From: Candidatus Magasanikiibacteriota bacterium
Lineage (GTDB): Bacteria; Patescibacteriota; Patescibacteriia; Magasanikbacterales; UBA922
NCBI GenBank assembly: GCA_018651085.1
Contig: JABIEQ010000002.1
Span: 87,783-151,782, forward strand
DNA: 64,000 bases
Direction: 5' to 3'
A model generated the notes under the pieces. It did not search any database. It worked only from the letters and a program-made list of their open reading frames with translations, and was not told where the DNA came from. The position numbers and the translations under genes were made by a program. Below, piece by piece: positions 3,487 through 63,414 of this stretch (positions are counted from its first letter, which is position 1; each line of letters opens with the position of its first letter).

Positions 3487-4135
3487 AGTATTTTGAGTAT
3501 GATGTTTGTTGTAGAGAGAATATTTTTATAAACATATTTACCCATGTAGGAAGGTAAGTATGATATTTCAATTCTATAATTGCTTGATCTGTGAGTAGTG
3601 TACTGTTGGTCTGAGTAAATGTAAAGTCATTAGGAATACAGCTTTGAAGGTCACGATCTATGGTAATACGAATATGAGGATGTTGAATACCAATTAATGG
3701 TTGACGGGTATAGCTTATAAGTGTTGTGGGGCGTAGTGTATCTTGTATGTATAGGTGTCTGAAAGCATTGTCAATTGAATACATATCAGATTGTTGTTTT
3801 ATTGTGTTTGCCTCAAGTTGTATTCGCTCTTTGGTGATAACTGCTCCGTGTTTATATTTAATCTCAGCAAAAATGTTAGATTTTCCATGCGTTTTAGTGT
3901 GGTATTGTCGTAAGCGAAATTTTTTTCTTTTCATTATACCGTATATTTTTTCGAAATAATATTTCAGTGTAGGGGTGTCAAAATATATGCTATGTACAAC
4001 ATATGATTTTGTTATGGGATCAGCGTAGGAAAGGTCCGGTTTAGCAAAGCGGGATAAAAAGAATAGGATTTTTGGTAGATCTTTTTTATTAACGATGTAC
4101 TTGTATTCAAATCTTTTTATTTGTGTTGTAAGCAT
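3446..4135 (-). CDS. VTC/CYTH-like triphosphate-tunnel domain protein (polyphosphate-polymerase-like)
   Basis: 229 aa, no TM; N-terminal RFEYKYIV motif resembles the CYTH EXEXK start; context with DUF4956 and CotH is a recurrent bacterial neighbourhood (established knowledge, not verified by search). Confidence 0.45.
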   Translation of the reverse strand: MLTTQIKRFEYKYIVNKKDLPKILFFLSRFAKPDLSYADPITKSYVVHSIYFDTPTLKYYFEKIYGIMKRKKFRLRQYHTKTHGKSNIFAEIKYKHGAVITKERIQLEANTIKQQSDMYSIDNAFRHLYIQDTLRPTTLISYTRQPLIGIQHPHIRITIDRDLQSCIPNDFTFTQTNSTLLTDQAIIELKYHTYLPTWVNMFIKIFSLQQTSYSKYCAGLQHIRPTLTK

Positions 4136-4136
4136 A

Positions 4137-6967: not shown

Positions 6968-6969
6968 AC

Positions 6970-31615: not shown

Positions 31616-33382
31616 ATGTATCGAACTCATACGTGTAATGCATTAAACACGACTCATGTCGGTCAGGAAGTAACCCTTTCTGGGTGGGTTCATAAACGGC
31701 GTGATTTGGGAGGACTTATTTTTGTTGATCTTCGTGATCGTTATGGGCTTACACAAGTAGTGTTTCATCCTGAAGACATTGCTGACTTTTCTGTGGTTGA
31801 AGGGTTGAAATATGAACATATTATTAAGGTTTCTGGGAAGGTTGTTGCGCGTGATACGAAGGCCGTGAATGATAAGCTCACGACAGGGAAAATTGAGCTT
31901 AGCGCAGTGAGCATTGATATTCTGTCGGCGACTAAACCTATGCCGTTTGAGATTTTTGAAACGGATAAGGGAGAAGAAGACGAAGAACTTCGGCTAAAAT
32001 ATCGATTTTTAGAATTACGACGGAAACGATTAAAAGAAAATATACTGTTTCGTAACAAAATGGAACAATATATTCATAAATACATGCAAGAGAGAGATTT
32101 TATTCATATCTCTACACCAATTTTAACAGTATCGTCTCCAGAAGGAGCAAGAGACTTTTTGGTTCCAAGTCGGATTCATCCTGGAAAGTTTTATGCGTTA
32201 CCTCAAGCACCACAGCAGTATAAACAGCTTTCAATGGTTGCTGGGTTTGATCGGTATTATCAGATTGCGCCATGTCTTCGAGATGAAGACCCGAGAGCCG
32301 ATCGTTCACCAGGAGAATTTTATCAACTTGATTGCGAAGTGAGTTTTATGACGCGTGATGAGTTTTTTGATCTCATGGAACCACTTTTTATTGAACTTAC
32401 AGAAAATGTTGCTGGGAAAACCGTCATGCAAAAACCGTTTCCTCGTATTCCATATAAGGAAGTTATGGAAACATATGGAAGTGATCGTCCAGACCTTCGC
32501 TTTGATTTAAAGATTTCGGATGTTACTGAGTGGGGGAAAGAAACTGATTTTAAAGTATTTCAATCAGCTGAACATGTTCGTGTCCTTGTTGTTCCAGGTG
32601 GGCATGAGTTTAGTCGTAAAGAAATTACGGATGAATTTGAAGATAAGGCTAAACGAGGCCATGCAAAAGGGTTAGCATGGATGAAGCATGTGGATGGTGC
32701 CTTTGATGGAGGTATCATGAAATTCTTTACTGAAACTCAGTTGCAACAACTGAAAGAACAAGTGTCACTTAGTGAAAATAGTATTCTCTTTTTTGTAGCT
32801 GATTCCTGGGATGTGTCTTGTAAAGCTCTTGGAGTTGTTCGAGAATATGTTGGAGAAAAAATGAAACTTGCTGATCCTAATATGATTGGGTGGGCGTGGG
32901 TTGTTGATTTTCCTTTTTATGAATGGAATGAAGAATATAAAAAAGTAGATTTTGGGCATAATCCATTTTCTATGCCACAAGGTGGTATGGATGCGCTTAT
33001 GAACCAAGATCCATTGATGATTCTTGCTGATCAATATGACATCATTGCAAACGGGTTAGAATTGTCTTCTGGTGCTGTTCGAAATAAAGATCCTGAAGTA
33101 ATGTATAAAGCCTTTGAAATTGCAGGGTATAAAAAAAGTGATGTTGATGATAAGTTTGGTCACATGATTCGTGCTTTTGAGTATGGTGCTCCACCTCATT
33201 GTGGGTTTGCGCCAGGTATTGAACGATTAGTGATGCTTCTTCGAGGTGAAAAGAACATTAGATCTGTTGTACCATTTCCAAAAAATCAAAAAGCAGAAGA
33301 GCCGATGGTGGGAAGCCCAAGTACGGTTGACGACGAACAACTCAAAGAACTTTCTATCAAGGTATCATTACCAAAAGCATAA
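31616..33382 (+). CDS. aspS: Aspartyl-tRNA synthetase, bacterial type
   Basis: 588 aa; MYRTHTCNAL...GWVHKRRDLGGLIFVDLRD; GAD insertion domain present. Confidence 0.93.
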   Translation: MYRTHTCNALNTTHVGQEVTLSGWVHKRRDLGGLIFVDLRDRYGLTQVVFHPEDIADFSVVEGLKYEHIIKVSGKVVARDTKAVNDKLTTGKIELSAVSIDILSATKPMPFEIFETDKGEEDEELRLKYRFLELRRKRLKENILFRNKMEQYIHKYMQERDFIHISTPILTVSSPEGARDFLVPSRIHPGKFYALPQAPQQYKQLSMVAGFDRYYQIAPCLRDEDPRADRSPGEFYQLDCEVSFMTRDEFFDLMEPLFIELTENVAGKTVMQKPFPRIPYKEVMETYGSDRPDLRFDLKISDVTEWGKETDFKVFQSAEHVRVLVVPGGHEFSRKEITDEFEDKAKRGHAKGLAWMKHVDGAFDGGIMKFFTETQLQQLKEQVSLSENSILFFVADSWDVSCKALGVVREYVGEKMKLADPNMIGWAWVVDFPFYEWNEEYKKVDFGHNPFSMPQGGMDALMNQDPLMILADQYDIIANGLELSSGAVRNKDPEVMYKAFEIAGYKKSDVDDKFGHMIRAFEYGAPPHCGFAPGIERLVMLLRGEKNIRSVVPFPKNQKAEEPMVGSPSTVDDEQLKELSIKVSLPKA

Positions 33383-33426
33383 TATATATAAAAGGGTGAG
33401 GTTCTCCTCATCCTTTTCTTCTTTTT

Positions 33427-35139
33427 ATGGATCTTCTTTATTCTGACATACAACACCTTGTTGCAATAAAATTGTGCTTTTTCTTGTTTTTGATATTTGC
33501 CATTGTTGGTATCTATAGAAAATGGCGTTTAGGGTACTTTGTAGGGCTTATAAGTCTTTTATCGGGTATTTCCTACCTTTTGCTCGTTCGAGGGCGTGAG
33601 CTCATGTTTTGGGGCCTTCATGGGGACGAGGTGACTATTGCCGCGATGTATACCATGGTGTCTAAAGGACCTGGTTTTGTGGATTTTGCGTATACGCATC
33701 TTCCTGCTTTTTATCCACCATTGTATTTTTGGGTATTTGGTTTTATTGGCCGTATGCTGTCGTTAAATGGTGTGCAGGTTGCTAAAATTGCTACGTTTTC
33801 TACTATTTTGTTTGTACCTATTATGTTGTATTTGGTGCAGGCCTGGTTTTGGAAAAAGAAAAAAGATGCAGGGATATTATTTACTCAAAAACTTTTATGG
33901 TTTTTATCTACGCTTTTGTTATTTGTAGTGATTGAGTGGGATGCCATTATTACAAAGCCATATCAATTTGTTTCCGCTGCTGGGATTATTATTTGGACAA
34001 CCATGTTGTTGTATTGGGTTCATAAGGAACGTCTTCGTCTTTTGAGTGGTATTGTGTTTGGAATTGTTGGTGGTCTTTTGTTTTTAACGTATTATTTTTG
34101 GTTTTTTCTTGCTGCTATTGGGATTACATTTTTTCATCTTTTTTATAAACGGGTTTCTTTTCGGGCGTATCTGTCTTTGTTTGGTGTTGGAGCGTTAACG
34201 CTCCTTGTTGGTTCTCCATTTTGGTGGCCACTTGCAAGGAGTTATCGAGCATTTGGTACAGAAAATTGGCAATTCGGGTATTTACTTGTTGAATGGCTTT
34301 CTACGCACGTCTCATTTTTCACCTTTTCGATTTCTTCGCTTGTTATGCTTTTTGGATTTGGTGTTCTTGTTTGGTATAGAAAACGTTTTTATTGCCGGGT
34401 GCTCTTGAGTTTATTTATTGCTTCATATGTGTGGCAAATAATGGGATTGTTTACGATTTTGTTTTTAGCGTCTCCCATGCAAGAAGCGAAAGGGTTTTAC
34501 TTTTTTAGTCGATCTGTTTTAGCTTTTGGCGCTGCGTATGGTATGACGCGTGTGTGGTTTTTCATTCGTCGTAAATATAAAGGGAATATCTTTATTTTAC
34601 GGACTATTCAGATTATTGCTATTTGTTTCTTAGCTACGCAGCTTCCGTTTGGATTTTTTATTGACGAACCACTTATCTATAATACCCGTGTAAGTGCTCG
34701 AGCACTTAATCCTGAAGTACGGTTGTTGATTGATTATCTAGACGATAAACACGTTGAAGATAGTGTTACTGTTCATAGTGGTATTACTGGTTTACATGCA
34801 TTTTTACCATTGAATACTTTTGTGTATTTTAATATGAATAATTCTCATCCTGCTGCATTGTTTTCTGAACGATTACTTGTGCTTGATGAATTATCTCGTG
34901 CAAAAACACCAGAAGAATTTTATACAATATCTCAAAATAATTATGTAGATACGATTGGTAGGTTTATTCTACGAAAAGACGAGGGAGAACAGTATCTTTT
35001 GTATTTTTTGATTGATAATTTTCCTCATGGTACAAAAGAGCATATTATTTCTTTTTCTAAAGATCTTATTTCTGACACACATTTTTCGTCAGTGTTTGAA
35101 ACAGAACATTTTGTGATATTTGAATCGAAGAATCTATGA
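33427..35139 (+). CDS. Polytopic GT-C-like membrane protein, paralog A (~13 TM plus a C-terminal soluble domain)
   Basis: 570 aa; WGLHGDEVTIAAMY acidic motif in the first loop; HLPAFYPPLYFW; clear paralogy to 41528-43246. Confidence 0.5.
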   Translation: MDLLYSDIQHLVAIKLCFFLFLIFAIVGIYRKWRLGYFVGLISLLSGISYLLLVRGRELMFWGLHGDEVTIAAMYTMVSKGPGFVDFAYTHLPAFYPPLYFWVFGFIGRMLSLNGVQVAKIATFSTILFVPIMLYLVQAWFWKKKKDAGILFTQKLLWFLSTLLLFVVIEWDAIITKPYQFVSAAGIIIWTTMLLYWVHKERLRLLSGIVFGIVGGLLFLTYYFWFFLAAIGITFFHLFYKRVSFRAYLSLFGVGALTLLVGSPFWWPLARSYRAFGTENWQFGYLLVEWLSTHVSFFTFSISSLVMLFGFGVLVWYRKRFYCRVLLSLFIASYVWQIMGLFTILFLASPMQEAKGFYFFSRSVLAFGAAYGMTRVWFFIRRKYKGNIFILRTIQIIAICFLATQLPFGFFIDEPLIYNTRVSARALNPEVRLLIDYLDDKHVEDSVTVHSGITGLHAFLPLNTFVYFNMNNSHPAALFSERLLVLDELSRAKTPEEFYTISQNNYVDTIGRFILRKDEGEQYLLYFLIDNFPHGTKEHIISFSKDLISDTHFSSVFETEHFVIFESKNL

Positions 35140-35900
35140 GTATGTTATCTGACAATTCTGTTGTTCTTATTATTCCTGTATATAATGGGGAAGAGTACTT
35201 GTTACGAACATGTGAAGAACTTGAAACGTACTTTGTAGAGCGACGTTATCTTAAAGAAATTATATTTGTTGACGACGGGAGTACTGATAATACCCATATT
35301 GCTTTAAAAAATAGTGTTCCTGCAGTATTAGCCTCTAGAGTGCGAGTACTCCATTATAAGAAAAATAGGGGAAAGGGATATGCAATTATGCATGCATTAT
35401 CTACGATTGACGATGCTGTTTCTTTTTTTGGCTTTACTGATGTTGAAATTCCATATGGATTGTCTTCTTTTGAAGAAGCCCTTTTTAAGCTTTTTGAATC
35501 AAAAGATATTGATGTTGTTATTGGAAATAGAAAACATAAAGATCAGACACAAGTGCAATATAGTTGGTATAGACAGTTTTGTACTCGTTTTTTTCGTTTA
35601 TTACTTCCTAAACCTATTCGTGCCATTTCAGATACACAAAGTGGGTTAAAGGTGTTTAAGGGAGATGTTGGACAAAAATTATTTTCATTAGTTCGAACAC
35701 ATCGTTGGGTGTTTGATATTGAGCTTCTGTTAGCTGTTGTTCGTGGTGGTTTTTCTTTTTATGAAATGCCCGTCTCTTTGAAGTCGTCGTGTCTCTCTCG
35801 TACTGGTGGTGTGTCTTTGTTTCGTCATGGTCCTCGAATCTTGTATGATATGATACGAATTTACTTATATGATAGAAAAAGCATATACAATTCTAAATAA
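35136..35900 (+). CDS. GT2-family glycosyltransferase (polyprenyl-phosphate sugar synthase-like, DPM1/GtrB type)
   Basis: VVLIIPVYNGEE...FVDDGSTDNT DXD-type GT2 N-terminus. Confidence 0.7.
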   Translation: MSMLSDNSVVLIIPVYNGEEYLLRTCEELETYFVERRYLKEIIFVDDGSTDNTHIALKNSVPAVLASRVRVLHYKKNRGKGYAIMHALSTIDDAVSFFGFTDVEIPYGLSSFEEALFKLFESKDIDVVIGNRKHKDQTQVQYSWYRQFCTRFFRLLLPKPIRAISDTQSGLKVFKGDVGQKLFSLVRTHRWVFDIELLLAVVRGGFSFYEMPVSLKSSCLSRTGGVSLFRHGPRILYDMIRIYLYDRKSIYNSK

Positions 35901-37542
35901 ATACGCGTCGATTATTGTTCCTGTTGGGCTTTTTTTGCTCATCTTCGCGGTATATTTCCCCCTTTTATCTATTGGGTTTTTTAGTGATGATTATCACATG
36001 CTTTCTGTTGTTTCTGACCAGGGGAGTGTATGGAAATATTGGATAACGAACCTTATTGGAGAGCGTGGAGGACACTCATATGGTCCAATATACAATATGG
36101 TGTTTACACTTGAATATTGGCTTTTTGGTTTACACAGTCTTGGGTATCATGTATTTACGTTGTTTTTTCATTTTATGAGTGCTTGTTTGGTGTTTTTCTT
36201 TGGAAGAGCATTAAGTAAACGAGTTTCTGTTGGGCTTGGTGCTGCTATTTTGTTTTCTATATTGCCTAATCATACGGAATCTCTTGCTTGGGTGTCTGTG
36301 CAACCGCATGTATTATCTACTTTGGGGTATCTTGGAGCACTATTAAGTTATTTCCTTTTTTTACAAAAACAGACAGTATTACGGTATATTGTGATGCTTG
36401 GTAGTGTGATATTTGCACTTTTTTCTAAAGATGCTGCATTGACGCTTCCAATTGCTCTTATATTAATGCATGTATTTTTTTCTCGACCTTCTTTTACAAA
36501 GGAATCCCTATATAGTTTTTTTCGTACCATATTGCCTGTTGTAGCTATTACTGGAGTGTATCTATTTTTGCGTACGTATACCACTCAAAGTGGAGGATAT
36601 TATGCTGGGGCACTTGATGTATCATTTTTCCCACTGCTTTCTATGTTTGTTGAGATTACGGTAAATATGTTTGTTGTGTATCCGGCGCGTATGATTGTTA
36701 CTCATTTTTTACCGACTACATTTGTTGTTCTTTTACTATTACCATTTTTTTTGTACTTTTTTATATTGTATACAAAACGTATACAAAAATCTGTGCGTAC
36801 GCCATTATGGTTTTTGTGTTGTTTGTATCCCGTTGTTCTTGCTCCGTTTTTGCTTCTTCAATATAACGTTCTTCATGACGGGGGTGAGCGATATGCCTAT
36901 CTTGGTTCATCAATATTTTTTATCCTTTTTTCGTATGTTATCTATACGTTTTTACGAAGATATATTAAACAATCATCTTTTCGTTTAGTGTATTTTGGTA
37001 TTTTCTTTTTATTCTTTCTTCTTTTTATTCCAATATCAATTTCTAAAAATATGAATTGGGAAGCTGCAGGAGATGTAAGAGATTCTATTTTTTCTTCTGA
37101 ACTAGTGGTATCATCTGACGATTATGTATTATTTGTAGGTATTCCTGACAACATAGATGGTGCAGAACTTTTTAGGAATGCTATTTTTGAATCTTTTTCT
37201 CTTGAAAATGATATGGATTTATCTGGTGAACGTTTACCTCTTTATACTCTTTTAGATAAGGATAGAGCTTTGTCTTTGGTTTTTGAAGAAGTGACACCTT
37301 ATGAATTTCTCCTTACCCCTCAAGAAAATGATGTTGATGATGTGGTGTTTACTGGGTTCCCTCACTATGATCATGCGTTTGGGTCTGCTGAATTAGGTGG
37401 ATTTGATTCTTTTGGGAGTGTTGGCCGGTCAATTCGTATTGTATTTGATGAAGAAAAGATTGAAGATGCATTTACCGGTGAGAGATCATTGGTTTTAGTG
37501 TATTTTTCAGATGGAGTATTTCAATCAGTGTCATTGTATTAA
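35869..37542 (+). CDS. GT-C-like polytopic membrane glycosyltransferase (PMT/ArnT/YfhO-like)
   Basis: 557 aa; FSDDYHM acidic motif in the first extracytoplasmic loop, 11 or more TM helices, C-terminal soluble domain. Confidence 0.45.
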   Translation: MIEKAYTILNKYASIIVPVGLFLLIFAVYFPLLSIGFFSDDYHMLSVVSDQGSVWKYWITNLIGERGGHSYGPIYNMVFTLEYWLFGLHSLGYHVFTLFFHFMSACLVFFFGRALSKRVSVGLGAAILFSILPNHTESLAWVSVQPHVLSTLGYLGALLSYFLFLQKQTVLRYIVMLGSVIFALFSKDAALTLPIALILMHVFFSRPSFTKESLYSFFRTILPVVAITGVYLFLRTYTTQSGGYYAGALDVSFFPLLSMFVEITVNMFVVYPARMIVTHFLPTTFVVLLLLPFFLYFFILYTKRIQKSVRTPLWFLCCLYPVVLAPFLLLQYNVLHDGGERYAYLGSSIFFILFSYVIYTFLRRYIKQSSFRLVYFGIFFLFFLLFIPISISKNMNWEAAGDVRDSIFSSELVVSSDDYVLFVGIPDNIDGAELFRNAIFESFSLENDMDLSGERLPLYTLLDKDRALSLVFEEVTPYEFLLTPQENDVDDVVFTGFPHYDHAFGSAELGGFDSFGSVGRSIRIVFDEEKIEDAFTGERSLVLVYFSDGVFQSVSLY

Positions 37543-37545
37543 CGT

Positions 37546-38919
37546 ATGTCTTCATTTTTTTCTTTTATTACAAAACATAAAGTATATACAGTGCTTCTTT
37601 TTTTATGTTTTATCCTTGGAGTAAGTATCCGTATTCATGATATACGAACATACAATCCTTGGTGGGCAGATGATGGAGGAGCACACGTTGCATATGTTAA
37701 TACTCTATTTAACGATCATGTGCTTCCTGACCCTTCTATAAATTATTTAGCGTGGCATGAACCTGGATATTATGCACTTAGCGCGGTATGGAAAGGAGTC
37801 GGCACATTGTTTGGTATTGAAAGTTTGGCCTTCGTCACAGCACTACAACTTATATTTTTTATTTTTCTATTTATTCTTGTCTGGCTGTTTACCTATTGGT
37901 ATAGCAAAAAAAATATTTGGCTTTCGTTATATGCTACGGGGCTTATAAGTGTTCTTTTTTCTTATGTGAAGGTGTCAACGTATATTACGAATGAGTTTTT
38001 AGTGCAAGTGGGCATTATTTTTGGCATTGCGGCTTTTTTATACTTTCGTCTTTATACATCTTCATCATATCTTCGGGTGAGTGTGTGGGCATTGTTTGTT
38101 GCCGGTTTATTACTTATAAAGGTGAGTGCTGTTCTTTTATTGTTTGGGGCTTGTGTGTTGTGGGGTATTAGAGCGATATCTAAAAAACAATGGTATCCAT
38201 TTTTATACATTGTTCTTACTATTTTTATTATTGGTGTGATTAATAGTCCTTGGCTTATGTATAAGCATCATACCTTTGGGGAGTCATTTTCTATTAATAG
38301 TCATGAATCTGTTAAGCAATCTGTTTTTACAAGTGATGCCTGGGAGTATATGTTTTCTTTTAATGGGCATGTTTTTTCTGATAACCCTTATTGGTTCTCT
38401 TTACCGTATTCATTTTCGAGTATTATAATTTCTGACACGTTTAGTGATTATTATAATTTGTTTCATGATGCTGATCGTTTAGCATTGTTACCAGAAAAAG
38501 ATAAGACACTACTTCCTAATAATAGATACACTACAGCAGTGCTTACCCATGCAACGCTTCGAATGAATCAGATTGGCTTAGGGATATTTGTATTATGGGT
38601 CATTGGTCTTTTTGGAACCCTCTATACTTCTGTTCGTTCTTATTATTTCTCAAAAAAGATCGATTATCGAACACTTTTTGTGTTTATTATGATTGGATCT
38701 GGTTGGGGTGCACTTATCTATAATAATCTTCGTCTGCCTTATCTTGATCGAGGAGTACTTAAGATTCATTTTGTATTGTTTGTTATCTTTTTGATGAGTA
38801 TGGTATCGTCGGTATGGTGGTGGAACATGCTTAAGGTTTGGTATTTTCGTGCTTTAGTGTTGTTTTTACCACTTTTTGTCTATACCGTCATAGGATGGTC
38901 TATTCTTTTTATGAAATAG
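37546..38919 (+). CDS. GT-C-like polytopic membrane protein
   Basis: 457 aa; NPWWADDGGAH motif in the first loop; multi-TM. Confidence 0.4.
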   Translation: MSSFFSFITKHKVYTVLLFLCFILGVSIRIHDIRTYNPWWADDGGAHVAYVNTLFNDHVLPDPSINYLAWHEPGYYALSAVWKGVGTLFGIESLAFVTALQLIFFIFLFILVWLFTYWYSKKNIWLSLYATGLISVLFSYVKVSTYITNEFLVQVGIIFGIAAFLYFRLYTSSSYLRVSVWALFVAGLLLIKVSAVLLLFGACVLWGIRAISKKQWYPFLYIVLTIFIIGVINSPWLMYKHHTFGESFSINSHESVKQSVFTSDAWEYMFSFNGHVFSDNPYWFSLPYSFSSIIISDTFSDYYNLFHDADRLALLPEKDKTLLPNNRYTTAVLTHATLRMNQIGLGIFVLWVIGLFGTLYTSVRSYYFSKKIDYRTLFVFIMIGSGWGALIYNNLRLPYLDRGVLKIHFVLFVIFLMSMVSSVWWWNMLKVWYFRALVLFLPLFVYTVIGWSILFMK

Positions 38920-38925
38920 GGTTGT

Positions 38926-40368
38926 ATGCTTTTTAGTTCCCTTCCATTTTTATTTCTCTTTTTACCAATATTTTTATTGGCATATTATCTATTGCCAAGA
39001 TCTTTAAGAAATATAGTGGTCCTTGTCTTTAGTTACCTTTTTTATGCGTGGGGTGCGCCTATGTTTGTACTGGTTCTTTTTGGTACAACGATTATCGACT
39101 ATGTGCTTGGTCGATTGATTGCAAGATATGCTACAAAAGGGAATGTCTCTCGATTATTTCTATGGATTTCTTTATTATCTAATGTAGGGTTATTGGTGTA
39201 TTTTAAGTATGCTAATTTTTTTGTAGGAGAGTTTCAGGTGCTTCTTAGTTCATTTGGTTTTTCTTCGTCGTCTTTTGTTGCCATTGCTCTTCCTATTGGA
39301 ATATCCTTTTTTACTTTTCAAAAAATTAGCTATATTGTTGACGTCTATCGTGGAACGACACCGCCAGCAAAAAAATTTACAGACTTTGCGTTATATATTG
39401 CATTATTTCCACAACTTATTGCTGGGCCGATTGTACGGTATCATGATATAGCTTCTCAAATAATTTCTCGGACACATTCATTTAAAAAGTTTTTTTCTGG
39501 ATTGTGGCGTTTTTCTATAGGGCTTGGTAAAAAAGTACTGATTGCTAATGAGTTATCTCAAATTGTTGATACTGTATTTGCGCTTCCTGTTGAAAGTATC
39601 CCTTTTACCTATGCATGGATAGCTATTCTTGCGTATGCTTTTCAGATTTATTTTGATTTTTCTGGATACTCTGATATGGCTATTGGGCTTTCTCGTATGA
39701 TTGGTTTTGATATTTTAGAAAACTTTCGGTTGCCATATATTTCTCGAACGATTACAGAGTTTTGGCGTCGTTGGCATATTTCGTTGTCTCGTTTCATGAG
39801 AGAATATTTGTATATTCCCCTTGGAGGAAATCGTGTGAGTGCTGTACGTATGTATGGTAATTTGTGGATTGTTTTTTTACTTAGTGGATTTTGGCATGGA
39901 GCAGCATGGACATTTGTTATTTGGGGTGCGTGGCATGGATTTTTTCTTATGTGTGATAAAATGTTTTTTAAAGCCTATGCAAAAAAGATTTCTGGTCTTA
40001 TTACTGTTCCATTAACGTTTTTTATTGTAAGTATGGGATGGGTATTTTTTCGTTCTGAAACGTTATCATATGCGTGGGGATTTTTTAATGCCTTATTTAA
40101 TGTATTTTCTATTGGCACGGTGTTTTCTGGTATAGCTTGGGGAGAATTTATTACCCATAGAGGTCTGTTTGTACTTGTCATTGCTTTATTGATTAGTTTT
40201 ATCCCTGCAATTGTTCCTTTGTCTAAAAAAGTTATTCAATGGATTTCTTGTATTTCCCCCATAAAAAAAGTAGCATTTCAGTCTGTGTGTATTGTGTTTC
40301 TTTTATTGGTATCTGTAATGGCTATAACAAACGATGCGTTTCATCCGTTTATCTATTTTAGATTTTAG
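38926..40368 (+). CDS. MBOAT-family membrane O-acyltransferase (AlgI/DltB/PatA-like)
   Basis: FWRRWHISLSRFMREYLYIPLGGNR and FLLSGFWHGAAW contain the MBOAT conserved His. Confidence 0.8.
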   Translation: MLFSSLPFLFLFLPIFLLAYYLLPRSLRNIVVLVFSYLFYAWGAPMFVLVLFGTTIIDYVLGRLIARYATKGNVSRLFLWISLLSNVGLLVYFKYANFFVGEFQVLLSSFGFSSSSFVAIALPIGISFFTFQKISYIVDVYRGTTPPAKKFTDFALYIALFPQLIAGPIVRYHDIASQIISRTHSFKKFFSGLWRFSIGLGKKVLIANELSQIVDTVFALPVESIPFTYAWIAILAYAFQIYFDFSGYSDMAIGLSRMIGFDILENFRLPYISRTITEFWRRWHISLSRFMREYLYIPLGGNRVSAVRMYGNLWIVFLLSGFWHGAAWTFVIWGAWHGFFLMCDKMFFKAYAKKISGLITVPLTFFIVSMGWVFFRSETLSYAWGFFNALFNVFSIGTVFSGIAWGEFITHRGLFVLVIALLISFIPAIVPLSKKVIQWISCISPIKKVAFQSVCIVFLLLVSVMAITNDAFHPFIYFRF

Positions 40369-40369
40369 T

Positions 40370-41518
40370 ATGCGACGGTTTTTTATATTCACAACTATAT
40401 TCTTTTTCCTTTTTCTTTTTGCTCCCGTATTGCAAGGGGTGTCTCATGTATTTCAAGAGTCATCTGTATCTGGAGTGGAATATATTCCGACGCGACCTAC
40501 CTTAACGTTGTCTTCTTTTAAAACAGGTGATTTCCAACGAGATTTTTCTGATTGGTTTTCGTATGTGATGGGGTTCCGGGGAGCATTGATTCGATCTGAT
40601 AATCAATTAAATTTTTCTTTGTTTTCTGATATTTCTTCACAAGCTGACACAAAGATTGTTTTAGGAAAACAGGACTTTTTATATGAGCAAGGCTATATTG
40701 ATGGTATACAACATATTGATCCGATTGACCCCTTGATATTAAAAGAACGGGTTTTAGCACTTCGTACATTTCAGGATGAACTTAATAAACGAGAAATTCC
40801 TTTTCTTTTGTTAATTAGTCCAAGTAAAGCAAGTGTCTATCCGGAGTTTATTCCTGATCGTTTTTTGTATACTGAAGCTGTTCAGACAAAAAATACCTAT
40901 GAACAGCTTGTTCCGCTTTTAGATACATATGGTATTCAGTATATTGATGGTCATGATTTTTTTGTAAGACAAAAAGAAACACAGCCCCATACGTTATTTT
41001 CTGCTGGTGGAACGCATTGGAATTATTATGGAGCACTTCTTTTTTTACAACATGTGTTTGATGTTCTTGAGATACATATAGATAAAGATTTACCAGAGCT
41101 TATCTTAGACGATGTTGTTGTTGATACGGATTCATATGCTGCTGATAGAGATCTTTTGGAGCTTATAAATGTTTGGGATACTAGTCCACTTGATTCGTTA
41201 ACACCACATCCGTTGTATCATAGTGAGACAGAAGGGAAGTTTCTTGGTGATTTTCTCTTTGTTGGCGATAGTTTTAGTTGGATTCTTCTAGATATTCTTG
41301 ATGGAGCTCATATGTACAATTCTCGGGATTTCTATTATTATTTTAAGCAGCATGACACGTACCCAGAGAAAAGCTCGACTTCGATTAATCGAAGTAACAT
41401 TAATTGGGAAAAAGATGTCTTTTCTCGTGATGCGATTATTTTAGAGGTAAATGAGACGGCGCCACTTCCATTATGGTTTGGTTTTGTTGACGAAGCGCTT
41501 AATTATCTTGAACTGTAA
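40370..41518 (+). CDS. AlgJ/AlgX-like SGNH-type partner of MBOAT (extracytoplasmic O-acetyltransferase)
   Basis: N-terminal signal/TM; SAGGTHWNYYG motif; always adjacent to MBOAT in such systems. Confidence 0.5.
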   Translation: MRRFFIFTTIFFFLFLFAPVLQGVSHVFQESSVSGVEYIPTRPTLTLSSFKTGDFQRDFSDWFSYVMGFRGALIRSDNQLNFSLFSDISSQADTKIVLGKQDFLYEQGYIDGIQHIDPIDPLILKERVLALRTFQDELNKREIPFLLLISPSKASVYPEFIPDRFLYTEAVQTKNTYEQLVPLLDTYGIQYIDGHDFFVRQKETQPHTLFSAGGTHWNYYGALLFLQHVFDVLEIHIDKDLPELILDDVVVDTDSYAADRDLLELINVWDTSPLDSLTPHPLYHSETEGKFLGDFLFVGDSFSWILLDILDGAHMYNSRDFYYYFKQHDTYPEKSSTSINRSNINWEKDVFSRDAIILEVNETAPLPLWFGFVDEALNYLEL

Positions 41519-41527
41519 TGTTTACAT

Positions 41528-43246
41528 ATGTTTTTTGATTTTCTGACCTACAATGATATTCAGCACATTATTGTTATTAAATTATGTTTTTTTCTGTTTT
41601 TAGGTTTATGTCTCTGGGGAATATATAAGCGATGCCGCGGATGGTGGTTTGTTTTTTTAGTAAGTATTTTTTCTTCTTTTACTTACCTTGTGTTTGTGAA
41701 TAATCTTGGTCTTCCGCTCTGGGGGTTAAAAGGTGATGAGATTACAATTACTGCTATGTATGAAATGATGGCGCATGGTGCAATGTTCCGTGATTTTGCC
41801 TATCCTAACTTACCAGCCTTCTATCCGCCGCTTTGGTTTTCTTTTTTTGGCCTTATTGGAAAGATTTTTTCTTGGAATGGAATTTTTATTGGTAAATTTG
41901 CAGCTGCAAGTACATTTTTATTGTTACCAGCAGTGTTTTATGCGCTGCAGGTATATTTTTGGGGTAAACAAAAGAGTGCAAGTCTTCCTGGTCCTGTAGC
42001 CTGGTTGTTTTCTTCTTTAGCGCTTTTTGTTGTTTTTGATTGGCATGTGGTGGTCTCTAAACCTTATGAAGTTGTGAGTGCTTGTTTGATTGTTCTTTGG
42101 ACGTTATTTTTCTTGTATGATTTGTGGCATAAAAAGATATCGCTTAAACGAGGACTCGTGTACAGTGTTACAGGTGGACTTCTGTTTATGGTATTTTATT
42201 TTTGGTTTTTTCTTGTAGCACTTGGTATTACTTTTTTTCATTTGTTATATAAACGTGTTTCGTTACGTAAATACGTTTCTTTATGTATTGTTGGTTTAGG
42301 GATTTTGTTGGTATCAGCTCCTTTTTGGTATCCTTTATTTGAAAGTTATAGAGTGTTAGGATCAGAAAATTGGACGCTTGGGTATTTTCTTCTTTCTGGT
42401 GTTGCAACGCATGGTCCGTTATTAACGTATTCCATTTCTTCGTTGGTTCTTTTGTTTGGATTAGTCTCTCTTATAGTGTACAGGAAACATTTTGTGCCGC
42501 GTATTCTTTTGAGTTTATTTGTTGCACAGTATGTGTGGCATATTATGGGACTTGTCACGCTTTTAGTATTGTCGTATCCAATGCAAGAAGCAAAGGGAGT
42601 CTATTATTTTCATCGAGTGGTTCTTTTGTTGGGAGCAGCTTATGGGGTTGAGCGATTATGGATATACTGTAAAAAAAGATTTTCATATAAGCATAAAGTT
42701 TGGACGCGTTCTGTTGTCCTTATTGGTGTGTGTGTATTATCTACGCAACTTTTTTTCGGGTTTACTGTTGACGATGTGCATCTACAAGAACGACGTTCTT
42801 TATCTCGATCTCTTGATAGTGATATGCAGGATCTCATATCATTTTTAGATGATACGAATGACACCGTTCATCGAGTGACTCTTCATTCAGGTATTTCTGA
42901 AATATCTGCATTTTTGCCAACCAACACCTTTATCTATTATAATGCCCATAACAGTCATCCTGCTGCACGGTTTTCTGAACGGCTATCTGTTGTTGATGCG
43001 CTGACAAGAATGACTGATCCTGAATCTTTTTTTGAGTTGACGCAACATAATGGAATAACTCCTATTACGCGATTTATCTTTTTTGCAGAAGAAGAGAAGG
43101 GATATCCACTATACTTTCATGTTGATGATTTTCCACACACTGCAAAAGAAGTAACTATGTATATTTCTCCATCGGTATTTTCTCCAGATTATTTTTCTGA
43201 AGTGTATCGATCAAAACGTTTTGTTGTATATGAATCAAACAAGTAA
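41528..43246 (+). CDS. Polytopic GT-C-like membrane protein, paralog B
   Basis: 572 aa; WGLKGDEITITAMY, NLPAFYPPLWFS, GITFFHLLYKRVSLRKY aligned with paralog A. Confidence 0.5.
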   Translation: MFFDFLTYNDIQHIIVIKLCFFLFLGLCLWGIYKRCRGWWFVFLVSIFSSFTYLVFVNNLGLPLWGLKGDEITITAMYEMMAHGAMFRDFAYPNLPAFYPPLWFSFFGLIGKIFSWNGIFIGKFAAASTFLLLPAVFYALQVYFWGKQKSASLPGPVAWLFSSLALFVVFDWHVVVSKPYEVVSACLIVLWTLFFLYDLWHKKISLKRGLVYSVTGGLLFMVFYFWFFLVALGITFFHLLYKRVSLRKYVSLCIVGLGILLVSAPFWYPLFESYRVLGSENWTLGYFLLSGVATHGPLLTYSISSLVLLFGLVSLIVYRKHFVPRILLSLFVAQYVWHIMGLVTLLVLSYPMQEAKGVYYFHRVVLLLGAAYGVERLWIYCKKRFSYKHKVWTRSVVLIGVCVLSTQLFFGFTVDDVHLQERRSLSRSLDSDMQDLISFLDDTNDTVHRVTLHSGISEISAFLPTNTFIYYNAHNSHPAARFSERLSVVDALTRMTDPESFFELTQHNGITPITRFIFFAEEEKGYPLYFHVDDFPHTAKEVTMYISPSVFSPDYFSEVYRSKRFVVYESNK

Positions 43247-43949
43247 TAATTCTATTGACCTTCAACTTGGGCAATTTGCAGGCCCTCTTGATCTTTTGTT
43301 ACACGTGTTACAAGAAAAAGAGCTCCATATTACGGAAGTCTCCCTTTCTTTGGTTACAGAGCAATATTTGGGGTATCTTGATGCCTTAGAAGATGATCAT
43401 AAGCATGAAGAATTAGCGGATTTTCTTGTTGTTGCTACAAAACTGCTTCTTATCAAAGCGCGGGCACTTTTGCCACATTTTTCCTTTCAGGAAGAAGAAG
43501 ACATGAATGAGCTTGAAGAACAGTTACGACGATATAAACGTTTTGTTGATGCAAGCAAAAAATTACATCAATTATGGCTGCATCCTCATCGTTCTTTGCC
43601 ACGTATTGAACCACCAAGAAAAGCGACGTCGTTTGTGTGGCCTACAAATGTGACTCTCGACCGTCTTCATGAACGTATGGTACAATTGGTTGAGCGTTTA
43701 TCTCCACCAAAGGCACTTCCAACGGCGACCATTGATCAGCGAGTGTCTATGAAGGACACCATTAATCGGATTCGTACGCTTCTTTCTTCTGAATCTCAAG
43801 TGATATTTCAAGAAGTAGTTGGAAAAACACAGAATAAAACAGCTCTTATTGTTGGGTTTATTGCTCTTTTAGAGCTTATGAAACAAAAAGAAGTGTTTTT
43901 ACATCAAGATCATACTTTTGGAGATATTGTTATTGAATCTGCATCATAA
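43230..43949 (+). CDS. scpA: Segregation and condensation protein A
   Basis: LQLGQFAGPLDLLLHVLQEKELHITEVSL. Confidence 0.8.
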   Translation: MNQTSNNSIDLQLGQFAGPLDLLLHVLQEKELHITEVSLSLVTEQYLGYLDALEDDHKHEELADFLVVATKLLLIKARALLPHFSFQEEEDMNELEEQLRRYKRFVDASKKLHQLWLHPHRSLPRIEPPRKATSFVWPTNVTLDRLHERMVQLVERLSPPKALPTATIDQRVSMKDTINRIRTLLSSESQVIFQEVVGKTQNKTALIVGFIALLELMKQKEVFLHQDHTFGDIVIESAS

Positions 43950-43955
43950 TTATTT

Positions 43956-44483
43956 ATGGATATTCTCTCTCACATTGAATCAATTTTATTTGTGGCATCA
44001 AAACCACTTCCTTTGACACGGATTGCAAAAGCTACAGGAAAGCAGGTAGGGGATATTTGTGAGGCTGTTGAAAATTTACGTCGTAAATGGAATCGAGATG
44101 ATTCAGGTATTCATATCCTTTTTGAAGCAGATCAAGTGCAAATGGTAACGAACCCTTTGTGTAGTGATGTTATTGAAGGGTTTGTAAAAGATGAAGTGGC
44201 GGGAGAGTTAACACGAGCACAACTTGAAACATTAACGGTTGTTGCGTATCAAGGTCCAGTGACTCGTCCTGAACTTGAACAAATTCGTGGGGTCAATTGT
44301 GCTATTATTTTACGAAATTTACTTATTCGTGGGTTGATTGAAGAAACAACGTCATCTGAACATATTCTTCCTGTGTATACATTATCTATTCTTTCTTTAC
44401 GTCATCTTGGTATCAGTGCTGCAACGGATCTTCCTGGATTTACTGAATTACGAAACCATGATCATATTTTAGCTTCTTCATAA
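43956..44483 (+). CDS. scpB: Segregation and condensation protein B
   Basis: IESILFVASKPLPLTRIAKATG winged helix. Confidence 0.8.
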   Translation: MDILSHIESILFVASKPLPLTRIAKATGKQVGDICEAVENLRRKWNRDDSGIHILFEADQVQMVTNPLCSDVIEGFVKDEVAGELTRAQLETLTVVAYQGPVTRPELEQIRGVNCAIILRNLLIRGLIEETTSSEHILPVYTLSILSLRHLGISAATDLPGFTELRNHDHILASS

Positions 44484-44484
44484 T

Positions 44485-45516
44485 ATGGAACCTATTAATT
44501 TTCTTCCTCCAGCGCCTCTTGAACCTCACGTGCGTACTCGTCGGTACGCTTTTTTTGGTGTTGTTTGTCTTTTTTTGTTTGTCGGTATTGGTCTTGTTGT
44601 TATGAAGCCTTCTTCTCCTGAATCTCAAGAAGTTTCTGAAGTTGTTGCTGTTGTACCCAACATTAGTGCTGTGAGTGATGTGGTTGGAGGGGATATTCAT
44701 GTTCCTCCTCCATCACCTGTTGTCGCGTTACCAGTTCTTGAAGGTACGTTACCTTCTGTCACTGATTTTACGGCAACTCACATGGTTGTTAAAGATCATA
44801 AAACAGGGGTTGTTTTATTTGAAAAGGATCCGTACACTGAATGGCCACTTGCGAGTATTACAAAGCTTATGAGTGCGCTTGTTCTTCTTGAAAGACCACT
44901 TGATATGACAAGTTCTACTGCTGTCGTGTCTGACGCTCTTATTGATACGCATATGTACGCAGGGGACACGTATACACTTGAAGAATTGTGGCAAGCAGCA
45001 CTTATTGGTTCATCAAATAAGGCTATTGTGACGCTTGTTGACGTGAGTGGTTGGCAGCGTGAAACATTTGTGGAGCGAATGAATCAAAAAGCGTTAGAGC
45101 TTGGAATGGGGGATACGCATTTTGTTGAACCCACAGGGCTTGATGCTAAAAACACGTCGACCGCTGTTGATGTGAGTATTTTATTGTCTGAAGCATTACG
45201 TTATGATGATATCCGTGATATTGTCCTTTCTCGTGAACTGACATTGTATTCGTTTGAACGAGAAAATGAACATCACTTGTGGAATACTAATTGGCTTCTT
45301 TTGGGGTGGATTCCATATGATGGGTTTATTCTTCGAGGAGCAAAAACTGGGTATATTCCGCGTTCACGGTATAATTTTACCGTGCAAGTTGAAGATACTG
45401 ACGGACACATTATTGATGTTGTTGTTTTAGGTGCAGAAGCACATGAAGCCCGATTTACAGAAGCAAGAGACATTGCTAAGGCGGTATTTGAGGCGTATCG
45501 TTGGCCTTCTTCATAA
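44485..45516 (+). CDS. D-alanyl-D-alanine carboxypeptidase (PBP5/6-type, peptidase S11), membrane anchored
   Basis: SITK (SxxK), SSN (SxN) and KTG motifs in order. Confidence 0.75.
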   Translation: MEPINFLPPAPLEPHVRTRRYAFFGVVCLFLFVGIGLVVMKPSSPESQEVSEVVAVVPNISAVSDVVGGDIHVPPPSPVVALPVLEGTLPSVTDFTATHMVVKDHKTGVVLFEKDPYTEWPLASITKLMSALVLLERPLDMTSSTAVVSDALIDTHMYAGDTYTLEELWQAALIGSSNKAIVTLVDVSGWQRETFVERMNQKALELGMGDTHFVEPTGLDAKNTSTAVDVSILLSEALRYDDIRDIVLSRELTLYSFERENEHHLWNTNWLLLGWIPYDGFILRGAKTGYIPRSRYNFTVQVEDTDGHIIDVVVLGAEAHEARFTEARDIAKAVFEAYRWPSS

Positions 45517-45527
45517 TTGATGAGTAT

Positions 45528-46091
45528 ATGCTGAAAAAATATAAAAAACATATATTTCGCCTTGTTGGGCTCGTCTTGTTGTTTTTTTTATTTGTCGTAA
45601 TTAATCAATCCCTAGTTGAAATTGATTTTATTCGTGATGTGGCACAAGATTCAGGGTACATTGGTATTTTTCTTCTTTCGGCATTAAGTGGATTTAATAT
45701 TTTAGTGCCGGTTCCAATTATTGGTTTTTTTCCTTTTTTTACAGAGATTGGTCTTCATCCTGTGTATGTGATTCTTATTATTTCAGTAGGGATGAGTTGT
45801 GGAGATACATTGGGGTTTCTTATTGGTCGATTTACAAAAACAGTAATGACTGATAAATCTCATACGTTTATGCGTCGTATTGAAAAACTGCGAGAGAAAA
45901 ATATTTGGTTACTGAGTACCTTTTTGTTTTTATATGCCTCTGTTGTGCCTTTGCCTAATGAATTGGTCGTTATCCCCGCATCTTTTTTAGGGATACGGTT
46001 TTTTCGAGTGATGATTCCTGTATTTTTTGGAAATTTAACCTTTAATATTCTTGCGGCTTTTGGGCTGTTTCATATTTTTCAATTGTTTTAG
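45528..46091 (+). CDS. DedA/VTT-domain membrane protein
   Basis: multi-TM; GxxxSCGDTLGFLIGR-like VTT motif. Confidence 0.45.
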   Translation: MLKKYKKHIFRLVGLVLLFFLFVVINQSLVEIDFIRDVAQDSGYIGIFLLSALSGFNILVPVPIIGFFPFFTEIGLHPVYVILIISVGMSCGDTLGFLIGRFTKTVMTDKSHTFMRRIEKLREKNIWLLSTFLFLYASVVPLPNELVVIPASFLGIRFFRVMIPVFFGNLTFNILAAFGLFHIFQLF

Positions 46092-46094
46092 TTT

Positions 46095-46601
46095 ATGGAT
46101 TTTTTCTCTCCCTTATCTCTTGTTGCGTCTTTTCCCCCTGAACTAGGTGTCTTTTTGCTTTCCATGCTTCCTATTACAGAACTTCGTGCATCAATCCCAA
46201 TTGGGATTGAAGTGTATGGGTTGCCCGTTATTGAAACCTGGGTTATTGCTGTCGTTGGAAATATTTTACCTACTATTTTTATATTATTACTTTTTCCTAA
46301 AATGCATGAATGGTTAATTCGTCAACGATTTTTAGGAGATGTCGTGAAGAAAAAAATGCAAGCAGCTTCAGAAAAATTTTCTGGAAGATATGCAAAATAT
46401 GGAGCAATTGCTTTAATTTTATTTGTGGGGCTTCCGTTACCTTTTACTGGAGCTTGGACAGGTTCTTTAGCGGCTTTTATTTTTGACATTCCTTTTAAAA
46501 AATCACTTCCCCTTATTTCTATTGGTGTGTGTATTGCCGCTACCATTGTCACACTCATTACTGTCTTTGCAGGAGGAACATTGCGTTGGTTTTTAGGTTA
46601 A
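46095..46601 (+). CDS. Small multi-TM protein, COG2426/putative small multidrug-export-like
   Basis: 168 aa; LPITELRASIPIGIE motif. Confidence 0.35.
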   Translation: MDFFSPLSLVASFPPELGVFLLSMLPITELRASIPIGIEVYGLPVIETWVIAVVGNILPTIFILLLFPKMHEWLIRQRFLGDVVKKKMQAASEKFSGRYAKYGAIALILFVGLPLPFTGAWTGSLAAFIFDIPFKKSLPLISIGVCIAATIVTLITVFAGGTLRWFLG

Positions 46602-63010: not shown

Positions 63011-63020
63011 TTTTTTATTG

Positions 63021-63414
63021 TGGAGATGCTGGGATTTGAACCCAGGTCTAGAGCGGGCTACCTACACACTCTACATACATAGCCGTTTTGTTGTTTCATA
63101 CTGTGATAAAAAAGCGGCAAAATCACGCAGTACTAGCCTAGGAGAATTTCAGATATACCATGCAGACACACTATATACCCTACACTCAATGTTTTGACAC
63201 CGCGGGACCATTATTGAGTATCATGGACGCGATGGCTGTGCTTATTTAGGCAACAACAGATGCGAGTGTTGGCATAGCAAATGCGTTAGCAAGTGTAGCC
63301 TTTACTCGACTGATAACGTTTGCACGTAATCGGTTGCCCCTTGATTTACGAGGGGAGACACCCTCGGTATGCATATATAGATAACGGATCCGTCTATCGA
63401 GTCCTGTCATCCCC
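63021..63414 (-). ncRNA. ssrA: tmRNA (transfer-messenger RNA)
   Basis: 5' GGGGAUGACAGGACUCGAUAGACGG; 3' GACCUGGGUUCAAAUCCCAGCAUCUCCA, a tRNA-like T-arm with encoded CCA; acceptor pairing GGGGAUG/CAUCUCC; candidate tag reading frame GCA AAC ... GUU GUU GCC UAA giving AN...ASVVA; immediately downstream of smpB. Confidence 0.8.

Follow-up and report, generated by a model that had tools for sequence, protein, structure and literature searches.

A species-variable gene cassette of predicted surface-glycan enzymes, flanked by distant AftA relatives, in Candidatus Magasanikbacteria

Introduction

The envelopes of bacteria of the Candidate Phyla Radiation (CPR, Patescibacteria) are almost unexplored biochemically, although these cells live attached to others. 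What, then, might be the role of seven tightly packed genes (g1 to g7; 33427-43246, + strand) found among the core genes of one such organism, an uncultured marine, Saanich-Inlet-type Candidatus Magasanikbacteria? The genes lie in a 64,000-nucleotide stretch of contig JABIEQ010000002.1, hereafter the window. A first-pass annotation of this DNA had read them as an envelope glycosylation and O-acylation island in which paralogous, polytopic proteins bracket a donor-making glycosyltransferase and an acyl-transfer pair. Our results suggest that the cassette is likely to decorate a cell-surface glycoconjugate on the outer side of the CPR cell's membrane, as judged from sequence homology and structural models. 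Several features are new relative to the annotation: the flanking genes resemble AftA of glycosyltransferase (GT) family GT85, the membrane-bound O-acyltransferase (MBOAT) is of an acetyl-CoA type, its SGNH partner is missing the Asp of the catalytic triad, no GtrA-type flippase gene was found in the window, and the AspRS/ScpA slot in which the cassette sits varies between species.

Results

The two genes that bracket the cassette, g1 (33427-35139, + strand, 570 aa) and g7 (41528-43246, + strand, 572 aa), encode what, on sequence grounds, are probably active but distant members of an AftA/GT85-like clade of C-fold glycosyltransferases (GT-C), as opposed to demonstrated arabinofuranosyltransferases. 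They had been described as a paralogous pair of 570 aa each; the paralogy held, at 49% identity over the full length (278/570, E = 0), while the second protein turned out to be slightly longer. The motifs quoted for them were present as well, namely GDEVTIAAMY in g1 and GDEITITAMY in g7, along with LPAFYPPL and GITFFHL, and a SHPAA motif occurs in the C-terminal soluble domain of g1 and likewise in that of g7. The Pfam model AftA_N (PF12250, gathering score 26.7) matched g7 above its threshold (28.4 bits) and g1 below it (19.3 bits), and a precomputed PF12250 match is carried by many homologues of the two. Scores for AftA_C (PF12249, gathering score 25) were below threshold for both g7 (15.9 bits) and g1 (13.2 bits). 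As a single sequence, g7 matched the cryo-EM structure of Mycobacterium tuberculosis AftA (8if8) at E = 0.017. A profile built from 38 family members returned that structure as its sole PDB match, at E = 3e-31, with profile positions 24-554 aligned to AftA residues 80-625, i.e., across both the membrane and the C-terminal domains.

In AftA, the catalytic base is Asp128 of the first long outside loop, Arg132 is an essential partner that stabilizes it (the R132A substitution abolishes activity of the M. tuberculosis enzyme), and Arg415 is a ligand of decaprenyl phosphate (PMC10265970). Asp128 aligned with Asp70 of g7 (41735-41737) and with Asp67 in the GDE motif of g1 (33625-33627), a residue invariant in all 38 family members. 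Arg415 aligned with Lys356 of g7 and Lys355 of g1 (QEAKG), where 33 of the 38 sequences carry Lys and 4 carry Arg. Among the other 36 family members, 50 columns reach at least 90% conservation, and each of the two proteins retains 48 or 49 of them. Identity between g1 and g7 is 51.4% in the membrane domain and 43.5% in the C-terminal domain, and the greater divergence of the latter is compatible with different acceptor specificities.

We also considered whether the pair arose by recent tandem duplication, and rejected it: the identity of g1 and g7 to orthologues of other species is 46-50%, which is comparable to the 49% between the two. In a neighbor-joining tree (without bootstrap), the two are sisters within a Magasanikbacteria clade, and the grouping is weak. 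Since g1 and g7 are no closer to one another than orthologues are across species, the duplication appears to be old, or else one copy was acquired from a relative. An assembly artefact does not account for it either, because the identical seven-gene arrangement recurs in independent samples, on 23 contigs or more, among them the Saanich Inlet 150-m metagenome (JGI 3300000154), SRR3724508 and ERZ27237584.

The other two polytopic proteins, g3 (35869-37542, + strand, 557 aa) and g4 (37546-38919, + strand, 457 aa), gave no Pfam, NCBIfam or PDB sequence match, whether single sequences or family profiles were compared with PDB. Their AlphaFold models (g3, pLDDT 85 and pTM 0.89; g4, pLDDT 93.6 and pTM 0.93) support their assignment to the GT-C glycosyltransferases by fold. 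In Foldseek searches of PDB, the first 39 matches of g3 and the first 36 of g4 were all GT-C, and the matches included STT3/PglB/AglB, ArnT, protein O-mannosyltransferases (PMTs), DPY19, ALG3/9/12, Emb, AftA and PIG-U. Transporters appeared only at probabilities below 0.15. The model of g3 was structurally nearest to the PMTs, and its distant relatives are PMT_2 + TPR proteins resembling "protein O-mannosyl-transferase" that match its N-terminal third; in the g4 family, a PMT_2 match was found in 17 of 37 members and a PMT match in 10. The PMT-like g3 has ~11 transmembrane (TM) helices and, after them, a beta-rich C-terminal domain (aa 419-555) that is predicted to be extramembrane and outside, and g4 is a compact, all-helical, PMT_2/GT39-like protein without a soluble domain. 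Relatives of g1/g7, g3 and g4 come nearly all from Magasanikbacteria or other Patescibacteria.

Three sources served to derive the topology, namely the helices of the AlphaFold models, homology to GT-C/AftA and the distribution of basic residues in alternate loops; a crude hydropathy predictor, which returned overlapping segments, was not used. The acidic pair of the FSDDYHM motif of g3, Asp40-Asp41 (35986-35991), is at least 90% conserved and stands right after TM1 (helix 2-34), and that of the WADDGG motif of g4, Asp42-Asp43 (37669-37674), follows TM1 (helix 12-35), Asp43 being invariant and Asp42 conserved to at least 90%. In each protein the pair begins a loop that holds two short helices, which is the canonical catalytic position of GT-C enzymes. 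Since basic residues are concentrated in the alternate (cytoplasmic) loops and the architecture is that of GT-C, the acidic loop is placed outside. The view that all four polytopic proteins are GT-C-like, with acidic motifs in the first outside loop, therefore stood up: the g1/g7 profile led to AftA only, with the motif Asp aligned to Asp128, and the g3 and g4 models led to GT-C enzymes and not to transporters.

Between g1 and g3 lies g2 (35136-35900, + strand, 254 aa), a soluble GT2 protein (Pfam Glycos_transf_2, 1.4e-18) with no predicted TM segment. The only NCBIfam models that aligned over nearly its full length were PpgS, a polyprenyl-phospho-N-acetylgalactosamine (polyprenyl-P-GalNAc) synthase, and AglJ, both of which are polyprenyl-phosphate-charging; the PpgS alignment joins residues 9-238 to model positions 2-218 of 226, at 34.7 bits. 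Among 11 members of the g2 family drawn from related loci, PpgS matched all 11 (best 1.3e-16), ArnC 10 (best 1.5e-20), PgfS 10 (best 6.7e-24), AglJ 7 and dolichyl-phosphate hexose transferase 5, and the family has the motifs DDGSxD, D-x-E/D, DTQ(C/S)G(F/L)K and RWxFDxE. These sequence matches support a PpgS/ArnC/AglJ/PgfS-like, polyprenyl-phosphate glycosyltransferase class for g2, as distinct from any assignment of its sugar, and they agree with the earlier proposal that the GT2 would make a polyprenyl-P-sugar donor.

The gene neighborhoods of these proteins were compared across 55 loci with AftA-like proteins from species-representative genomes, together with several loci found by exact-protein look-up, onto all of which the window proteins were mapped. 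A g2-like GT2 was the commonest non-housekeeping neighbor of AftA-like genes (11 loci, usually one gene away on either side), some of these loci being from CPR other than Magasanikbacteria. In six loci (L004, L005, L013, L015, L019 and the window), the GT2 is directly followed by g3, the two genes overlapping at least in L004, in L005 and in the window, and in L014 both are present with an AftA-like gene between them. These seven are the loci that carry both genes, and g3 is the conserved partner of the GT2. A GtrA gene (Pfam PF04138) directly adjoins the AftA-like gene in L027, L054 and L055, the last of these combining GT2, AftA-like and GtrA genes. Because GtrB-like GT2 and GtrA genes adjoin AftA-like genes in other CPR, hexose-type lipid donors are suggested for the AftA-like enzymes.

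The acyl-transfer part of the cassette begins with g5 (38926-40368, + strand, 480 aa), an MBOAT (Pfam, 1.2e-32) of PatA/AlgI type with the catalytic His284 in WHISLS (39775-39777). Its last six residues, FIYFRF (aa 475-480, 40348-40365), form an FXYXXF motif, and the orthologues encoded in L004 and L054 terminate with FIYFQF and FIYFRF. MBOATs of the PatA/AlgI type have two additional TM helices and a terminal FXYXXF, the Tyr of which undergoes auto-acetylation by acetyl-CoA and then carries the acetyl group to the SGNH partner, whereas DltB lacks this motif and depends on DltX (PMC12148441). Since g5 is of PatA/AlgI type with a C-terminal FXYXXF, O-acetylation rather than D-alanylation is indicated, as the annotation had supposed in view of the absence of DltA and DltC.

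The putative partner, g6 (40334-41518, + strand, 394 aa), is a predicted O-acetyltransferase with a single predicted N-terminal anchor and a Pfam ALGX match (1.8e-8), belonging to a family with 5562 cluster representatives at E <=1e-3. Its start is probably M13 (40370, per the database gene call), which is 1 base past the g5 stop, so that the two genes would not overlap. Searched alone, g6 had no PDB match; a 58-sequence profile of its family matched AlgJ (1e-11), Bacillus cereus PatB1 (6e-9) and AlgX (6e-6), in keeping with the AlgJ/PatB-like SGNH partner named in the annotation. In the protein the His precedes the Ser, which is the circularly permuted order, and AlgJ signature 1 is present (LISPSK); its His228 (GGTHW, 41015-41017) and Ser313 (VGDSF, 41270-41272) are invariant and align with those of AlgJ and PatB1. 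A putative acetyltransferase of AlgJ/PatB1 type such as g6 points to a polysaccharide acceptor.

Comparison of loci showed that the cassette occupies a fixed place. The order AsnRS-RsmB-AspRS-[slot]-ScpA-ScpB-S11-(VTT)-PF06695-ParA-ParB is conserved in Magasanikbacteria, and the content of the slot is variable over ~24 syntenic loci. In ~15 of these (L001, L002, L006-L012, L017, L018, L020, L021, L037 and L045), it holds one AftA-like gene and no other module. Elsewhere it holds AftA-like, GT2 and g3 genes (L013, L015 and L019; rearranged in L014), g4-like and AftA-like genes (L022), GT2 and g3 only (L005), or GT2, g3, MBOAT and AlgX genes without an AftA-like gene (L004). Every module plus a second AftA-like copy was found only in the window, which alone among the sampled loci has a pair of AftA-like copies less than 10 kb apart. 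Movement of the MBOAT+AlgX module is independent of the AftA-like genes, as seen in L004 and L054. The locus is thus a modular cassette in a conserved housekeeping slot, with a gene content that differs between related species, and since module content differs in this way, the cassette most likely diversifies surface-glycan structure.

Although the annotation used the word "island", a mobile island was rejected in favor of a variable cassette: the housekeeping genes on either side are conserved, integrase and transposase genes are absent, and the GC content is only 2-3 points below that of the flanks, a dip typical of T-rich membrane genes.

Two observations on the slot and its AftA-like genes were made in other genomes. 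A conserved ~100-aa basic protein with no Pfam match is encoded in the gap between AspRS and the AftA-like gene in seven loci of Magasanikbacteria type, L007 (9589-9894), L008-L011, L020 and L022, and is not found in the window. In a Candidatus Buchananbacteria locus (L003, 1-15320), the AftA-like gene lies amid genes for GT2, two GT4, PMT_2, a dTDP-sugar isomerase, epimerases/reductases and a nucleotidyltransferase, a glycan-cluster setting unlike the context of AftA-like genes in Magasanikbacteria.

The seven co-directional open reading frames (ORFs) of the cassette were all confirmed on the + strand with the coordinates first assigned to them, and the tight packing reported for them, including an ATGA overlap of 4 nt between g1 and g2 (35136-35139), was read directly in the sequence; g2 and g3 overlap by 32 nt. 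The left flank is AspRS (31616-33382, + strand), and the 44-nt gap between its stop and the g1 start holds a strong terminator-like hairpin with a 12-bp stem and a T-run (33390-33417, + strand), which marks the upstream edge of the cassette. A conventional promoter would not fit ahead of g1. The right flank (43221-46601, + strand) comprises ScpA, ScpB, a Peptidase_S11 protein (a PBP5-like D-Ala-D-Ala carboxypeptidase), a VTT/DedA-like protein and a PF06695 membrane protein; the end of g7 overlaps the scpA start, and from g1 through PF06695 the genes are contiguous or overlapping. No further hairpin with a stem >10 bp was detected on the + strand between the first one and the end of PF06695 (46601), and the scan returned one other hairpin with a 12-bp stem, at 46643-46616 on the - strand.

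The VTT/DedA-like and PF06695 ("small multidrug export") genes (45501-46601) are conserved after the PBP5-like carboxypeptidase gene in many Magasanikbacteria. Proteins of the DedA family have been linked to polyprenyl-phosphate recycling, and the two products are candidates for lipid-carrier handling.

The remainder of the window is core genome. Upstream are genes for 16S rRNA, a ribosomal-protein operon, SecY, Adk, Map, RecO, AsnRS, an RsmB-like methyltransferase and AspRS, and downstream, beyond the right flank just described, are those for ParA/ParB. The source organism is evident from g3, whose sequence matches at 100% identity the NCBI protein HN726_02995 from a metagenome-assembled genome of Candidatus Magasanikbacteria.

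Discussion

How might such a cassette work? In the sequence of steps that we propose, cytoplasmic g2 would load a sugar from a nucleotide-sugar onto polyprenyl phosphate, and the resulting lipid-monophospho-sugar would be flipped by a flippase encoded outside the cassette. The four proteins classed as GT-C by fold, homology and motifs (g1, g3, g4 and g7) would then glycosylate an outside acceptor from lipid-linked sugars, each by means of the conserved Asp of its first extracytoplasmic loop and with g3 as the fixed partner of g2. Judging from its motifs, g5 would take acetyl from cytoplasmic acetyl-CoA onto the Tyr of FIYFRF, and the acetyl group would be passed to Ser313 of anchored g6, which would O-acetylate the polymer.

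Several observations weigh against this proposal, and the whole case rests on homology, predicted structure and synteny. The column of AftA Arg132 holds Ile or Val throughout the g1/g7 family (Ile74 in g7). Neither g2 nor any member of its family reaches an NCBIfam equivalog cut-off, and the PDB sequence matches of g2 are weak (5hea, 4e-6; ArnC, 1e-4). A tblastn search with CPR GtrA found no GtrA-like flippase gene in the 64-kb window, and most AftA-like genes of Magasanikbacteria have no adjacent GT2. Finally, the canonical triad Asp is replaced by Gly family-wide in the g6 family, which has GGTHW where (R/K)TDTHW or TDHHW would be expected. Asp273 (394-aa numbering) and Asn279 are invariant in that family. 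To judge by its alignment, the family may run on a Ser-His dyad, such as has been reported for CE2 esterases in a review of SGNH enzymes, or on a relocated Asp, for which Asp273 is the candidate.

The acceptor on which these enzymes would act could be a wall-associated glycopolymer made by a pathway of an initiating phosphoglycosyltransferase (PGT), GT4 enzymes and a Wzx/MurJ-like flippase, a choice that we favor only tentatively and by analogy. It is prompted by homologues of g4 in three look-ups (two in a single JGI sample and the third in an ENA assembly), which lie in a conserved lipid-linked glycan assembly cluster with a PGT (Bac_transf), three or four GT4, DUF6311, DUF4012 and a MurJ/Wzx-like flippase. 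In L061 (1193-13095) and the two JGI contigs, the order is Bac_transf PGT, three GT4, g4-like GT-C, DUF6311, DUF4012, MurJ/Wzx-like flippase and LepA, and by its gene content this type of Patescibacteria cluster looks like a complete lipid-linked surface-glycan pathway.

Since the flanking genes resemble AftA, they could conceivably be true arabinofuranosyltransferases that, like AftA in Corynebacteriales, use decaprenyl- or undecaprenyl-phospho-arabinofuranose to start a wall polymer resembling arabinogalactan. The homology is full-length, C-terminal domain included, the catalytic Asp and a phosphate-binding basic residue are conserved, and several g1/g7 homologues in public Magasanikbacteria records are already named "arabinofuranosyltransferase" by NCBI (source-record annotation). 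Against this, identity to AftA is so low that a single sequence barely finds it, neither protein reaches the AftA_C threshold, and Arg132 is lost. Moreover, genes of the pentofuranose route are wanting: no phosphoribosyltransferase or DprE1/E2-like genes occur in the window, and no families of the decaprenyl-phospho-arabinose (DPA) pathway are enriched among 131 neighbors of AftA-like genes in other CPR loci, as judged from their 25 most frequent Pfam families, a count that a single UbiA or DprE1 could escape. The recurrent neighbors are instead GtrB-like GT2 and GtrA, which define hexose-type, three-component Gtr systems (UDP-sugar-dependent synthase, flippase and GT-C), contrasted in the literature with the route to pentofuranoses, including arabinofuranose, via a phosphoribosyl pyrophosphate (PRPP)-dependent phosphoribosyltransferase and DprE (PMC11127046). 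We therefore regard arabinosyl transfer as improbable; by analogy with the Gtr systems, a GT2-made polyprenyl-P-hexose or -N-acetylhexosamine is more likely to be the donor of the AftA-like enzymes than decaprenyl-P-arabinose. That the polytopic proteins are instead transporters or non-enzymatic membrane proteins is suggested only by their being polytopic and by the failure of g3 and g4 to match Pfam, and at the level of fold it is refuted.

The acceptors might instead be proteins, the GT2/GT-C pairs O-glycosylating Ser/Thr-rich extracytoplasmic regions as streptococcal GtrB/PgtC2 and PgfS/PgfM1 do. The resemblance of g3 and its distant relatives to PMTs and the PgfS matches of the g2 family speak for this, as does the precedent that streptococcal GT-A/GT-C pairs glycosylate Ser/Thr-rich regions of surface proteins (PMC12041528). 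The window itself encodes an 892-aa Fn3 protein (7913-10591), a candidate O-glycosylation acceptor with 26% Ser/Thr overall and 60% in a 40-residue tract (aa 363-402). Yet MBOAT + AlgJ/PatB1-type pairs are known for polysaccharides, and relatives of g4 occur in the polysaccharide-type PGT/GT4/flippase clusters, so protein acceptors seem rather unlikely, if still the strongest competitor to a glycopolymer. Less likely again is that g5 and g6 O-acetylate peptidoglycan, like PatA/PatB, independently of the glycosyltransferases. An MBOAT with FXYXXF and an extracytoplasmic SGNH partner would suit that task, a PBP5-like carboxypeptidase gene adjoins the locus, and the MBOAT+AlgX module is mobile separately from AftA-like genes; but g6 falls in the circularly permuted AlgX/AlgJ/PatB1 branch, whose characterized members act on alginate or secondary cell-wall polysaccharide, while Gram-negative PatB is an SGNH protein of canonical order. 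As to D-alanylation of a teichoic-acid-like polymer by a DltB/DltD-like pair, DltB is indeed the best NCBIfam and PDB sequence match of g5 (TIGR04091, 6e-40; 6bug, 7.5e-22). The TIGR04091 score is 137.6 bits against a cut-off of 375, g5 carries the shuttle motif that DltB does without, no DltA, DltC, DltD or DltX was found among the window ORFs, and g6 is AlgX-like, not DltD-like; this explanation is close to refuted.

Decoration of a surface glycoconjugate has precedents in known systems, each of which resembles the cassette in part. M. tuberculosis AftA (Rv3792, GT85), the priming galactan 5-O-arabinofuranosyltransferase, is, like g1 and g7, a 13-TM GT-C protein with a C-terminal alpha/beta domain. 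The catalytic Asp and an LP(P/A)FYPP segment are common to all three, Arg415 corresponds to Lys, and a C-terminal H-x-x-x-P-x-A-x-F-x-x-R segment is partly conserved. Unlike AftA, g1 and g7 are without Arg132 and have an N-terminus shorter by ~55 residues, and pairwise similarity is very low. The hosts differ (Corynebacteriales vs. CPR), as do the partners, which are the DPA pathway and galactan genes for AftA and a GtrB-like GT2 plus GtrA for the CPR relatives. In the Gtr-type system (GtrA, the polyprenyl-P-glucose synthase GtrB and a serotype-specific GT-C; PMC11127046), the GT2 is tightly coupled to the GT-C, as the overlap of g2 and g3 recalls, and all three components stand beside an AftA-like GT-C in locus L055; the modular variation of the cassette between species likewise recalls seroconversion. 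In contrast to that system, the window has no GtrA, g2 has no GtrB-type C-terminal TM anchor, one synthase is accompanied by four GT-C genes, and the CPR host presumably has a single membrane.

Further parallels concern the donor and the acyl group. Mycobacterial PpgS (Rv3631), which with Rv3779 places galactosamine on arabinogalactan via polyprenyl-P-GalNAc, is a short, TM-less GT2 feeding a GT-C, as g2 would be, although neither g2 nor its family scores anywhere near the equivalog cut-off of 370. Streptococcal GtrB/PgtC2 and PgfS/PgfM1 follow the same logic, in which a GT-A makes an undecaprenyl-phosphate-linked sugar and a GT-C transfers it outside the membrane (PMC12041528), but their GT-C proteins belong with YfhO, in contrast to the PMT_2-like g3 and g4 and the AftA-like g1 and g7. 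For g5 and g6, the closest functional analogue is PatA1/PatB1 of Bacillus, which O-acetylates secondary cell-wall polysaccharide. The MBOAT His and FXYXXF are common to g5 and the MBOAT-SGNH pairs PatA/PatB (peptidoglycan), AlgI/AlgJ/AlgX (alginate) and PatA1/PatB1, and the AlgX-type order, AlgJ signature 1 and the AlgJ/PatB1/AlgX profile match link g6 to their SGNH components. In place of the Asp of the AlgJ/PatB1 D-x-H motif the g6 family has Gly, and the cassette lacks AlgF and a carbohydrate-binding module (CBM).

What the locus offers is a concrete list of parts, open to testing, by which one class of CPR may decorate its surface glycans. Each enzyme class is already known, and the advance is contextual, not conceptual: AftA-type GT-C enzymes, so far a subject of mycobacterial wall research and a tuberculosis drug target, are distantly related to proteins found widely in CPR, where these are wired to Gtr-type donor machinery. 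Our literature searches returned nothing relevant on AftA/GT85 or GT-C glycosylation in CPR. The variable content of the slot could serve to mark surface-glycan diversity in metagenomes. A bolder and unlikely extension is that Magasanikbacteria and several other CPR lineages possess an undescribed wall-associated glycopolymer, the priming or assembly of which would depend on the near-core AftA-like enzyme encoded next to scpAB and the PBP5-like gene, with the AspRS/ScpA slot as a hypervariable "serotype" locus. If this were true, AftA-like duplication, side-branching by GT2+GT-C and O-acetylation by MBOAT/SGNH would diversify the polymer, perhaps under phage or host-attachment pressure, and GT85 chemistry would reach beyond Corynebacteriales with a different, GT2-made lipid donor.

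Other features of the window were noted in passing. A complete 16S rRNA gene (962-2468) has no 23S gene after it, the next gene being a minus-strand protein gene, so that the rRNA genes are apparently unlinked. Directly adjoining the 16S rRNA gene is a low-GC block (2764-7902, - strand; GC 0.30-0.32) that encodes DUF4956, a VTC domain protein, a CYTH-like protein, a CotH kinase and a TPR-like ORF, and that resembles a cluster of polyphosphate/VTC-CotH type. At 63018-63414, near the other end of the window, there is a tmRNA gene with the tag peptide ANAFAMPTLASVVA.

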